From positions 3,648,001 to 3,712,000 of the forward strand of contig OY759599.1 in NCBI GenBank assembly GCA_963662465.1: a stretch of 64,000 bases of DNA. Reading direction: 5' to 3'. The notes below the pieces were generated by a model. It was not told the DNA's origin, did not search any database, and worked only from the letters and a program-made list of their open reading frames with translations. The translations under genes and the position numbers were made by a program. Shown in pieces: positions 49,280 to 51,901 of the stretch. Every line of letters starts with the position of its first letter. Within the stretch, counting starts at the first letter, position 1. The DNA comes from Desulfatiglandales bacterium. GTDB lineage: Bacteria > Desulfobacterota > DSM-4660 > Desulfatiglandales > Desulfatiglandaceae.

Positions 49280-50437
49280 ATGTCTTACGACCTTACCGAA
49301 GAACAGGAAATGCTCAAGGAAACCGTTGCGCGTATTGCCAAAGAACAGATTGCCCCCGGCGCCTCGGAAAGGGATGAAAAAGCCGAATTCCCATGGGACA
49401 TGGTGGCGTTGCTGCGGGAAAACGCTCTTTTCGGCGCTGACTATCCGGAAGAATTCGGGGGGTCCAAGATGGGACTTTTTTCCCTATGTCTGATCATCGA
49501 AGAAATCGCCAAGGTCTGCGCTTCCACCTCCGTGGTCCTGCTGGTCCATGAGCTGGGCGCCATGCCCATCATGCTGGCCGGCAACGACGAACAAAAGAAA
49601 CGATATTTTCCAAAATTGGCAAGCGGTGAAAACCTTATCGCATTCGGCCTCACGGAACCCAACGCCGGCTCCGATGTGTCCGGTCTTAAGACCAAGGCCG
49701 TCAGGGACGACGACGATTATATCATTAACGGAACCAAAACATTCATCTCCCATGCGGACGTGGCGGACGTGGTATGTATCGCAGCCAGAACCAATCCTTC
49801 CGTGGCGGGGCCAAAAGGCACCGGCATATTTATCGTGGACAAGGGCACGCCGGGTTTCAGCATCGGCAAGCATGAGAGCAAAATGGGCGTTCGCGCTTCC
49901 TCCACCGTGGAAATCATCCTGGAAGATGTCCGTGTGCCGGCAAGAAACATTCTGGGGGGCGAAGCGTTGGGCTTTCCGATTCTCATGAAAACACTCGATC
50001 TGACCCGCATCCCCGTGGCCAGCCAGGCCGTTGGCATTGCTCAGGGCGCCCTTGATTTTGCCGTCAACTACACCAAGGAACGGACCCAGTTCGGCAAGCC
50101 TCTTTTCTCTTTTCAAGGTCTTCAGTGGATGATGGCCGATATGACCACCCAGGTAGAAGCAGCCCGACAGCTGACCTACAAGGCCGCCGCCGTTTTCGAA
50201 AAATTCCCTAAAAACCTGGATCGTCTCCCCAAGGAAGCGGTTCGGCAATCGGCCATGGCCAAACTCTTCGCCGGGGAAACCGCCATGAAGGTCACAACGG
50301 ATGCGGTTCAGTTGTTGGGCGGTTATGGTTACGTCAAGGAATATCCAGTGGAAAGAATGATGCGCGACGCCAAAATCACCCAGATATACGAAGGCACCAG
50401 CCAGATTCAAAAGGTGGTGATTGCCGCCACCCTGTAA
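49280..50437 (+). CDS. Acyl-CoA dehydrogenase
   Basis: LTEPNAGSD, NGTK.FIS, KMGVRAS, RTQFGKP, GGYGY and IYEGT motifs. Confidence 0.96.
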   Translation: MSYDLTEEQEMLKETVARIAKEQIAPGASERDEKAEFPWDMVALLRENALFGADYPEEFGGSKMGLFSLCLIIEEIAKVCASTSVVLLVHELGAMPIMLAGNDEQKKRYFPKLASGENLIAFGLTEPNAGSDVSGLKTKAVRDDDDYIINGTKTFISHADVADVVCIAARTNPSVAGPKGTGIFIVDKGTPGFSIGKHESKMGVRASSTVEIILEDVRVPARNILGGEALGFPILMKTLDLTRIPVASQAVGIAQGALDFAVNYTKERTQFGKPLFSFQGLQWMMADMTTQVEAARQLTYKAAAVFEKFPKNLDRLPKEAVRQSAMAKLFAGETAMKVTTDAVQLLGGYGYVKEYPVERMMRDAKITQIYEGTSQIQKVVIAATL

Positions 50438-50493
50438 ATCCCCCGAGCCACAAACCGGACGCCCGCCGTTAATATCGCGGGGGCTTCCGGTTT
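50240..50493 (+). repeat. Copy 1 of a 254-bp duplication (ACAD 3' end plus terminator)
   Basis: Aligns end to end with 51648-51901 with scattered substitutions. Confidence 0.95.
50452..50493 (+). terminator. Hairpin terminator after ACAD
   Basis: AAACCGGACGCCCGC...GCGGGGGCTTCCGGTTT; paralogous hairpin at about 51860-51902. Confidence 0.65.
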
Positions 50494-50524
50494 GTTCCGA
50501 ATTGTATTCAATAATCCCGATAGT

Positions 50525-50645
50525 CCGACAAAATGTTCTCCCTCGGGGCTCCTGGATCTCATTGTAACCGCTGAATGCCCACATCGATGGATGACTGACG
50601 GCTCCGGCACGTACCATATTCGTATCTATATAGACCATAATGATG
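50525..50645 (-). pseudogene. Fragment of a REP-associated tyrosine transposase (RAYT/Y1)
   Basis: Reads VYIDTNMVRAGAVSHPSMWAFSGYNEIQEPR, the catalytic-Tyr Y-I-x-x-N-x-V-R-A-G...W-x-x-S-x-Y segment. Confidence 0.7.
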
Positions 50646-50830
50646 CGGTATTAATCAAAGTCAGCCGGGCTCTGGACCGAAAGCACCGGTCTGTTCAGGA
50701 CAAGGGTTTCGTTTATATGATGCCGTCGGACCATCCCGCTTCGAGGGGGCTCGGGGATGGCAACATCCCCCGGCTACCCGGCAATCGAAATTTACTCCCA
50801 GCAAGGTACCATAAGGCATAAATTAAAGTA

Positions 50831-50859
50831 TTGACAAAGGTATGTACAATGTAAATAAT
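50831..50859 (+). promoter_or_regulatory. Putative sigma70 promoter of the TA operon
   Basis: TTGACA, 17 nt, AATAAT in an AT-rich stretch; SD GGAGG before ATG 50902. Confidence 0.65.
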
Positions 50860-50901
50860 ATTGGTACAACATATATAAATATTATAATTGGAGGTGCCTA
50901 A

Positions 50902-51159
50902 ATGCCTGGTGTAAAAACTGCGATATCATTAGAAAAGGATTTATTCAATCAAGTCAATCAATTAGCCAGTGACTTACATGTGTCACGGAGCAAATTGTTT
51001 ACTCTAGCCGTCAAAGATTATCTAAAAAAACAAGAAAGTAAAAAGCTGCTGGTTCAACTCAATGCGGCGTATAGCGATTCACCAACCGAAGAAGAAAAGA
51101 CAATTTCAAAGGCCATGAAGAGAAAACAGCTCAAAATTGTGGAGCAAGAATCATGGTAA
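50902..51159 (+). CDS. Ribbon-helix-helix antitoxin (MazE/ChpI-like)
   Basis: VKTAISL...LF...VSRSKLF..AV..YL; overlaps the toxin start. Confidence 0.85.
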   Translation: MPGVKTAISLEKDLFNQVNQLASDLHVSRSKLFTLAVKDYLKKQESKKLLVQLNAAYSDSPTEEEKTISKAMKRKQLKIVEQESW

Positions 51160-51506
51160 TAAAACAAGGTGAAATATATTGGGTAGACCTAGGTGAACCA
51201 AGTGGGTCAGAACCTGGATATAGGCATCCACATATTGTAATTCAAAATAACATTTTTAATTCGAGCAATATAAATACAGTTGTTGTTTGCTCTTTAACTA
51301 CAAATTTAAACAGAGCAAAAGCCCCTGGTAATGTCCCTCTTAATAAAGGGGAAGCTAATTTGCCGAAGAAGAGTGTTGTTAATGTTTCTCAAATATATAC
51401 CGTCAACAAAAGCGACCTTTCTGAGAAAATCGGTCAAATATCTGAGAAAAGAATGTATGAAGTTCTTGAGGGACTAAGCCTTCTCACTGAGCCAAGGGAT
51501 ATTTAG
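51153..51506 (+). CDS. mazF: PemK/MazF-family endoribonuclease toxin
   Basis: QGEIYWVDL..P.GSEPGYRHP..VIQNN.FN and SVVNVSQI motifs. Confidence 0.92.
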   Translation: MVIKQGEIYWVDLGEPSGSEPGYRHPHIVIQNNIFNSSNINTVVVCSLTTNLNRAKAPGNVPLNKGEANLPKKSVVNVSQIYTVNKSDLSEKIGQISEKRMYEVLEGLSLLTEPRDI

Positions 51507-51533
51507 GTAACTCAAATCAATAATAACAAATAC

Positions 51534-51654
51534 TGCTAACAAGTTACTGCACCAGACCCCAAGGGGCTACCTGTATCGGCTTTAATAAGTTTCGTGTTTA
51601 CGTGCATTTAATTAATACTGTGTCACCTTGGGGTAGGTGAGCATGGCGTTAGGC
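51534..51654 (+). other. Integron attC recombination site (121 bp)
   Basis: R'' TGCTAAC; L'' ACTGCACC pairing with L' GGTGAG with an extrahelical G; inner stem ACCCCAAGG/CCTTGGGGT; R' GTTAGGC (GTTRRRY). Confidence 0.85.
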
Positions 51655-51901
51655 AGCCGGCCATGGCCAAACTCTTCGCCGGGGAGACCGCCATGAAGAT
51701 CACGACCGATGCGGTCCAGCTGTTGGGCGATTATGGCTACGTCAAGGAATATCCGGTGGAAAGAATGATGCGCGACGCCAAAATCACCCAGATATACGAA
51801 GGCACCAGCCAGATTCAAAAGGTGGTGATTGCCGCCACCCTGTAAATTCCCGGGTTTACAAACCGGACGTCCGCCGTTAATATCGAGGGGGTTTCCGGTT
51901 T
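51648..51901 (+). pseudogene. Copy 2 of the ACAD 3' end plus terminator (no 5' part)
   Basis: Reads [10 protein letters not shown]...LLGDYGY...AATL*; conserved GGYG changed to GDYG. Confidence 0.92.

Follow-up and report, generated by a model that had tools for sequence, protein, structure and literature searches.

A degraded integron fused at its attC site within an acyl-CoA dehydrogenase gene that survives through two diverged 3' ends

An attC site consists of inverted core boxes ending in AAC...GTT, lies at the 3' end of a gene cassette and is about 57-141 bases long. Genomic islands that target tRNA or tmRNA genes restore their target by bringing its 3' end with them. Evidence that cassettes insert into secondary chromosomal sites, termed attG, comes mostly from laboratory assays of class 1 to 3 integrases, and natural isolated cassettes rarely keep the context of their arrival. 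Passages of one preprint report experiments in which integrases inserted DNA by attC × attG recombination at GWT triplets and excised it at nearby genomic sites (10.1101/2022.09.11.507474). Parts of two other sources describe attC cassettes that persist after integrase loss, known as CALINs or degraded chromosomal integrons (PMC4889954), and the abundance of toxin-antitoxin (TA) cassettes in chromosomal integrons (PMC7923331). Here we describe a locus in a 64,000-nucleotide stretch of DNA ("the window") from Desulfatiglandales bacterium (assembly GCA_963662465.1, contig OY759599.1, positions 3,648,001 to 3,712,000), in which the remains of an integron with one mazEF cassette end, at an attC site, within the sequence of an acyl-CoA dehydrogenase (ACAD) gene whose 3' end is present twice. 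We slightly favour the reading, at a probability of about 0.55, that one integrase-mediated joint between attC and a secondary, attG-like site united two alleles of one species, that the gene was kept whole, and that the arrangement later spread by homologous recombination.

The intact ACAD gene (49280-50437, plus strand) encodes 385 amino acids and matches the Pfam domains Acyl-CoA_dh_N, Acyl-CoA_dh_M and Acyl-CoA_dh_1. Its last 66 codons form part of the first copy of a direct repeat. Copy 1 (50240-50493, plus strand) comprises 198 bp of the ACAD 3' end and 56 bp with the terminator hairpin; copy 2 (51648-51901, plus strand) is a displaced and decaying version of the same 3' end and terminator. 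A first-pass annotation, made from the letters alone, had described a 254-bp duplicate of the ACAD 3' end, and alignment of the two intervals showed its coordinates to be exact: 233 of 254 positions (91.7%) are identical, without a gap. Both copies open with GTT and the sequence immediately to the left of it is unrelated between them, so the homology does begin at the G|TT crossover triplet, as had been proposed. Mismatches number 12 in the 198 coding bases, 9 of them synonymous and 3 not, and 9 in the 56-base terminator part; the mostly synonymous character of the differences (9:3) and the change of GGYG to GDYG in copy 2 had likewise been read correctly. The C-terminal 65 residues of the ACAD are the same as in the relatives G010 and G003; among named ACAD proteins, the closest belong to Desulfobacteraceae-type metagenome bins.

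The attC site that abuts copy 2 is 121 bases long (51534-51654, plus strand) and begins 28 bases past the mazF stop codon. Its R'' box lies at 51534-51540 and its R' box at 51648-51654, with core ends AAC at 51538-51540 and GTT at 51648-51650, and the crossover G|TT falls between 51648 and 51649. The host genome, a single contig of 8.16 Mb, holds about 56 attC sites of one family. The window site matches this family in the 5' arm, the 3' arm, the spacing of the arms from AAC and GTT, and two bulge positions on the 5' arm. As is constant in the family, 5 bases separate its GTT from the 3' arm, and its bottom-strand fold displays the bulges.

To score the site, we trained a home-made covariance model on 20 attC sites from the host, the window site excluded; its calibration was shortened and is rough. 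When both strands of the window were searched, the best match was 51538-51650 (plus strand) with 14.1 bits and an E value of 0.085, among 13 matches with E up to 10, and no second credible match was present in the 64 kb. Because the place of the attC had been named beforehand in the first-pass annotation, the relevant search space is far below the whole window. In addition, we composed a pattern of 19 fixed bases from the arms that the sites have in common, after both sequences were known; it occurred at 35 sites in the 8.16 Mb (34 family members and the window attC) and at none in three shuffled genomes. On the strength of the arms and bulges shared with the host family and of the best covariance match in the window, the attC proposed at 51534-51654 is genuine and of the host's own type.

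Other searches for attC sites were set aside. A genome scan for the canonical pattern RYYYAAC...GTTRRRY returned 295 matches with no enrichment near integrases, and the pattern is unfit for the host's sites. The second-best match of the covariance model, at 60871-60939, proved to be an ordinary hairpin 3' of an acetyltransferase gene. An Rfam scan of 49000-53500 gave two chance-level matches, far under the gathering scores, and no attC family.

The DNA between the two ACAD tails had been called a cassette-like unit. A more fitting description is that of an entire integron reduced to a stump, with integrase remnants, an intron remnant and a last cassette. Next to copy 1 lies a short flank (50494-50522) like the DNA directly 3' of ACAD in the relative G005; 20 of 24 bases are identical, and none of 2000 shuffles scored equally high. 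It is followed on the minus strand by a fragment of a RAYT-like (IS200/Y1) transposase gene (50520-50638), corresponding to the C-terminal region and 83% identical in DNA to positions 4722440-4722548 of the same genome (G000). The fragment matched full copies in tblastn; the copy at 7018161-7018973 matches PF01797 (E 1.1e-8) and scores 60.3 bits against NF047646, under the cut-off of 80. The RAYT-like piece also occurs within 4722440-4723313 of the same genome, differently arranged.

The next part, again on the minus strand, is a remnant of an integron integrase gene (50651-50742) in which two pieces are fused, one from the RRHH region and one from the C-terminal end with the stop codon. The RRHH motif is typical of integron integrases. 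Bases 50637-50707, which hold the C-terminal piece, are 89-90% identical to positions 2928808-2928877 and 4723100-4723170 of the host genome, and the former interval underlies a match to TIGR02249, the integron integrase family, at model positions 285-313. Bases 50694-50746 match the relatives G004 and G005 too, where they adjoin the same integrase piece. Elsewhere in the host genome, 4722440-4723313 and 2928769-2928877 contain the same short C-terminal integrase piece and look like further integron debris.

The integrase remnant is followed by the last hairpin (domain VI) of a group II intron (50743-50790, plus strand), truncated at the border of domains V and VI. This remnant is 88-100% identical over 35-49 bases to 15 sites of the genome (16 with a 26-base match). 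Full copies of the intron have domain V directly upstream, and their 5' start lies six bases past the GTT of attC sites, in the cassette direction. At six other domain VI copies in the genome (3321493, 3326248, 4987311, 5890438, 6375431 and 6748338), a different common sequence replaces domain V at the same border. The breakpoint in the window may be related to these, but to its left the sequence does not match theirs. Inspection of open reading frames and Pfam matches revealed no intact recombinase gene between the repeat copies. Since the integrase gene is on the minus strand and the cassettes are on the plus strand, the parts follow one another as in a single integron, from which most of the integrase gene, attI and the inner cassettes have been deleted. 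The earlier list of insert parts holds for the RAYT remnant, mazEF and attC; it had overlooked the integrase remnants at 50651-50742 and the intron end at 50743-50790.

The mazEF gene cassette (50791-51648, plus strand) is complete but for its first six bases. It contains a ribbon-helix-helix antitoxin gene of 85 codons, MazE-like by position (50902-51159, plus strand; PF01402, E 0.0011, under the cut-off), and a gene for a MazF/PemK-type toxin (51153-51506, plus strand; PF02452, E 1e-28). The two genes overlap by 7 bases, and the predicted products form a type II toxin-antitoxin pair of the MazEF/PemIK type. Two promoter-like sites precede them (50831-50888, plus strand), one at 50831-50859 with 11 of 12 consensus bases and one at 50861-50888; among the matches listed, the −35 region is kept in 17 of 17 cassette relatives. 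The G+C content drops to 29-40% over about 50800-51650. Both the mazEF and the attC sequences are single-copy in the host genome.

Homologues of this cassette were found with integron boundaries. The relative G009 carries a 77% identical mazEF cassette with an attC on either side, and the 3' arm of the upstream attC nearly equals that of the window. Metagenome mazEF loci are 70-86% identical to the window and carry both genes in 79 of 80 cases. Among the evaluable loci, the left boundary GTTAGC was present in 20 of 76, an R''-like box after mazF in 27 of 77, and both in 11 of 74, compared with chance expectations of about 3% for the boundary and 5% for the box. In the cassette relatives, GTTAGC is followed by bases that align with the window from 50791 onward, indicating that the window cassette lacks only six bases, which once lay upstream of the intron. 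The attC-bounded homologue of G009, the boundary motifs in metagenomes and the promoter-like sites agree with the first-pass annotation, and mazEF is a true integron cassette with a predicted promoter of its own. Separately, sequencing run X1, a 2012 marine metagenome, contains a mazF contig that covers 51143-51477 of the window at 98.5% identity, without cover of attC or the joint; this mazF cassette may be located elsewhere in that community.

The reading that we favour calls for an integron integrase acting in trans. TIGR02249 scored above its cut-off at five places in the genome. Four of these matches are full length, so that intI genes do exist elsewhere in the genome, where the first-pass annotation had suggested looking for them. 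We also tested 53 attC sites of the genome for a nearby copy of the DNA downstream of them. Such a copy was found only at the window site and at one pair of duplicated cassettes within an array; the two attC sites of this pair are 24.8 kb apart in one array, and each is followed by 220 identical bases (6738185-6738404 and 6762956-6763175).

The history of the two ACAD 3' ends was approached by polarising their differences with four close relatives. Four changes are found in copy 1 only, all synonymous. Four are found in copy 2 only, and three of these alter amino acids (S to P, V to I, G to D); the three replacements occurred in none of 43 homologues in a clustered protein library, where rare alleles may be hidden. 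Since the differences are mainly synonymous (9:3), the copies diverged as working genes in different strains. Neutral drift of copy 2 over the time implied by the synonymous divergence would have given many more changes, and the copies were therefore joined fairly recently. The decay of copy 2 began after the joining. Which copy is native was undecided by counts of mismatches to relatives (11 versus 14 and 15 versus 13 of 198), and a maximum-likelihood tree of nine 198-base sequences was an unresolved polytomy.

This pattern of divergence rules out a simple in-place duplication. The alternative that the repeat arose by tandem duplication in place, or that the assembly merged two strain haplotypes, draws on an 88-base core that is identical between the copies and that short-read graphs cannot phase. 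Nevertheless, we hold it to be highly improbable: the differences are mostly synonymous, those in copy 2 are far too few for a long neutral history, and the genome is one contig of 8.16 Mb. Public sequencing runs were used, among them X9, a run holding 99% of the stretch; X11, from another organism ("organism B") and another study; and the metagenome X1. Gaps in the cover that X1 and X12 give to the stretch were not counted as evidence. In X9, contigs span all four junctions and break only in the 88-base core. One further X9 joint, from 50056 to 51658 (depth 5, 34 letters on the shorter side), is a probable split mapping of a paralogue and was rejected. The junction between attC and copy 2 recurs in the independent X11 study. 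Misassembly, a concern raised in the first-pass annotation, is thereby countered at every junction.

Every scenario requires a non-homologous joint between the G|TT of attC and an internal GTT of ACAD. GTT is present at the ACAD codon of the joint in all four close relatives. Over their first 10 bases, the two copies agree at only 7 positions, versus about 92% further along. Two of the four copy 2-only changes fall in these 10 bases and give copy 2 a beginning like that usually seen at the 5' end of mazEF cassettes of this type. The motif CRGM at positions +6 to +9 has been published as an attG hotspot, according to passages of the attG preprint (10.1101/2022.09.11.507474); at these positions copy 2 has CAGC, copy 1 has CAAT and the relatives have CAGT, and copy 2 fits CRGM. 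The two odd bases mean either that the target was a variant hotspot, or that the crossover lay a few bases to the right, in which case joining through short homology would be indicated.

The latter possibility amounts to homology-facilitated illegitimate recombination, in which DNA arriving from a strain with the integron beside ACAD would have recombined by homology on the left and been joined by chance on the right, through about 10 bases that would have been similar after the attC and at the ACAD site. We regard it as rather unlikely. The weak match of copies 1 and 2 over these 10 bases would be expected from such a joint, as would the resemblance of the two odd bases to the conserved cassette 5' end in the metagenome relatives; a binomial estimate, made after the data were seen, puts at about 0.014 the probability that two of four copy 2-only changes lie in 10 of 198 bases. 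Against this, the joint would by chance have come within a few bases of the one integrase cut position in more than a kilobase, and a variant target with the odd bases would fit the CRGM hotspot.

The data from organism B bear on how the integron insert reached its present distribution. Three X11 contigs, covering 50410-50665, 50908-51350 and 51349-51687, show 3, 1 and 1 differences from the window; with 5 differences over 1038 bases, identity in the insert is about 99.5%. The flanks of organism B differ at 46 of 1039, 20 of 567, 15 of 217 and 32 of 949 positions (3.4-6.9%). The contig over 51349-51687 crosses the junction of attC and copy 2 with at most 1 difference in 339 bases, and organism B consequently has at least one of the two odd bases of copy 2. 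Sharing of odd bases points to a single origin, to a similar tract that extends past the end of any supposed unit, and to homologous recombination rather than independent re-insertion.

The contrast between insert and flanks in organism B would also suit a mobile unit. In this alternative, the 1408-bp stretch from copy 1 through attC is a circle made by imprecise excision between attC and a secondary site, which re-inserts at the same GTT of ACAD and repairs the gene. Excision at nearby genomic sites is indeed documented in passages of the attG preprint (10.1101/2022.09.11.507474). However, organism B possesses at least one of the two odd bases, although its own allele would be expected to differ at both; its near-identical tract runs past the supposed end of the unit, as homologous recombination predicts; and the attC sites tested in the host genome include no second instance, while mazEF and attC are single-copy there. 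Movement of this kind is distinctly unlikely. The first-pass annotation had pictured an element of 1.4 kb integrating as such, and we found no evidence that it moves as a unit: organism B has the one shared junction, and the 53 attC sites offer no parallel.

Comparison with relatives placed the locus in a region of conserved gene order on one side only. The order upstream of ACAD is common to G010, G003 and G004, up to 50436-50491 of the window; downstream of ACAD it is different in every relative. In the window, copy 2 is followed by a spacer (51902-51962) without a match to the DNA 3' of ACAD in relatives, and then by a gene for a TAXI-type TRAP solute receptor (NMT1_3; 51972-52961, plus strand; PF16868, E 4e-85). 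ACAD and TAXI are not adjacent in G010, G003, G005 and G008. In G001, G002 and G010, TAXI is preceded by a different block, and homology of the window to their DNA upstream of TAXI starts only at about 51963-52002. The adjacency of ACAD and TAXI is derived, because TAXI has another upstream block in relatives, and this block lies at 7.894 Mb in the host. At that place (7894285-7894657), the end of TAXI's usual upstream block keeps a short motif similar to one upstream of TAXI in the window (51902-51962), a hint that an earlier rearrangement duplicated a short target.

An empty ACAD-TAXI locus was not seen among 60 related genomes (61 with the window's own), and a metagenome scan with a 62-base ACAD pattern gave no matches. 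In run X1, a 590-base contig with a depth of about 4 joins 50102-50482 to 51894-52100 and so contains ACAD, one terminator and the DNA upstream of TAXI; it looks like an empty site. A second ACAD 5' part is absent from the host genome, and hence no reciprocal product was kept.

From the parts of the insert, its attC, the position of the junction, the integrases and the divergence pattern, we infer an enzyme, an order of events and an imported copy as follows. A chromosomal integron stump would once have stood downstream of an ACAD allele, with the ACAD flank, the transposase fragment, the integrase fragments, the intron end and mazEF with its attC in this order. An integron integrase acting in trans would have recombined the folded attC with the GTT inside ACAD of a second, conspecific allele, as a secondary site of the attG type. 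According to parts of one source, incoming linear single strands are good integrase substrates, and the integrases of chromosomal integrons show a preference for their own type of attC site (PMC12614218). At its other end, the exchange would have been completed by homologous recombination within the ACAD sequence common to both alleles; alternatively, the DNA may have entered as a circle. The integron-linked allele would have supplied the complete ACAD 3' end, giving the intact gene with copy 1, and the 3' end to the right of the crossover would remain as the dead duplicate, copy 2. The 254-bp duplication would thus be explained, because the integron-linked allele brings the full ACAD 3' end and the joint falls upstream of that end in the other allele. 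Expression of the TA pair from the cassette's own promoter would probably help the insert to persist, and the filled locus may later have spread within the species by homologous recombination.

Several observations weigh against this course of events. The covariance score of the attC is modest (E 0.085, window-wide), a sequence-only family profile (nhmmer) missed the site at E up to 10, and Rfam offers no family that matches it. With its long A+T-rich loop, the attC hairpin does not stand out from shuffled sequences in stability (z −1.08; 29 of 200 folded equally well). No other attC among the 53 tested in the genome has the architecture of the window, and there is accordingly no sign of a recurrent mechanism. 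The donor order, ACAD followed by a full integron, was not found in the 60 related genomes (61 with the host's own). The empty-site contig of X1 is short and about 4-fold deep, and the assembly could have made it as a chimera by way of the 88-base core. Finally, the odd bases of copy 2 mean that the true crossover could have fallen as much as about 10 bases right of G|TT, which is not where an integrase would place it, and the fourth core position, A in copy 2, is C in all four close relatives.

The surroundings of the locus contain further elements. A strong attC of the host family (66 bits) lies at 3743212-3743298 of the genome (minus strand), about 31 kb past the end of the window and far from any full integrase gene, and may likewise be an isolated site. 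A gene for a tyrosine recombinase of the phage-integrase family (57891-58682, minus strand) was considered as an integron integrase and rejected, as it reaches 35.9 bits against a cut-off of 265; it lies outside the repeats. Directly downstream of TAXI stands an intact IS605-type TnpB/OrfB gene (53318-54406; 362 amino acids). In the relative G001, about 11 kb are missing between TAXI and the shared block that comes next, this gene included.

The value of the locus lies in the context that it keeps, namely both target alleles, the precise point of joining, pieces of the integron from which the insert derives, and a host that has several integrases as well as attC sites to match. The locus offers a testable natural case of an integron reshaping the chromosome outside its array, and it suggests a way in which homologous and site-specific recombination may act together as DNA is exchanged among strains. 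If the unit were mobile after all, as a circle that had taken along the 3' end of the neighbouring gene, it would represent gene-sparing cassette spread, an integron counterpart of islands that rebuild their target, held in place by the TA pair.

Among the known systems, attC × attG insertion and SALINs (single attC sites without an integron integrase), as passages of the attG preprint present them (10.1101/2022.09.11.507474), resemble the window in having a lone attC-ended cassette outside an array and a GWT triplet, here GTT, at a joint inside a chromosomal gene. Our reading also shares with them an integrase acting in trans, a cassette expressed from a promoter, and nearby excision that rearranges flanking DNA. 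Unlike such bare cassettes, the insert consists of an integron stump in which parts of an integrase gene and of an intron remain; the integrase remnants 800 bases upstream of attC mark it as a degraded integron rather than an inserted cassette of the SALIN type. Unlike in a simple attG insertion, the target is undisrupted, and 254 bp are present twice as two diverged alleles. CALINs are similar in that an integrase pseudogene stands beside the attC cassette in the window, but the window has one attC only and its outer end is fused inside a housekeeping-type gene.

As in the islands that restore their target, a direct repeat of the target 3' end flanks the insert and the gene is functional. Those islands differ from the window insert, which has no integrase gene, whose repeats are 8% diverged instead of being identical att sites, and whose right joint is an attC hairpin. 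Like TA cassettes of chromosomal integrons, the window has a promoter-bearing type II TA pair as a cassette, and group II introns adjoin attC; unlike them, the cassette lies outside an array. We found no description of the architecture in the available text of the attG preprint (10.1101/2022.09.11.507474), which has 0 occurrences of "duplication" and "restor", or in the literature searched, which was not a full survey. The parts and the enzyme activity are known, from SALINs, CALINs and attG insertion to TA cassettes and introns at attC. What is new is the architecture, in which an integron stump is fused at its attC inside a gene that survives through two diverged tail alleles flanking the insert.

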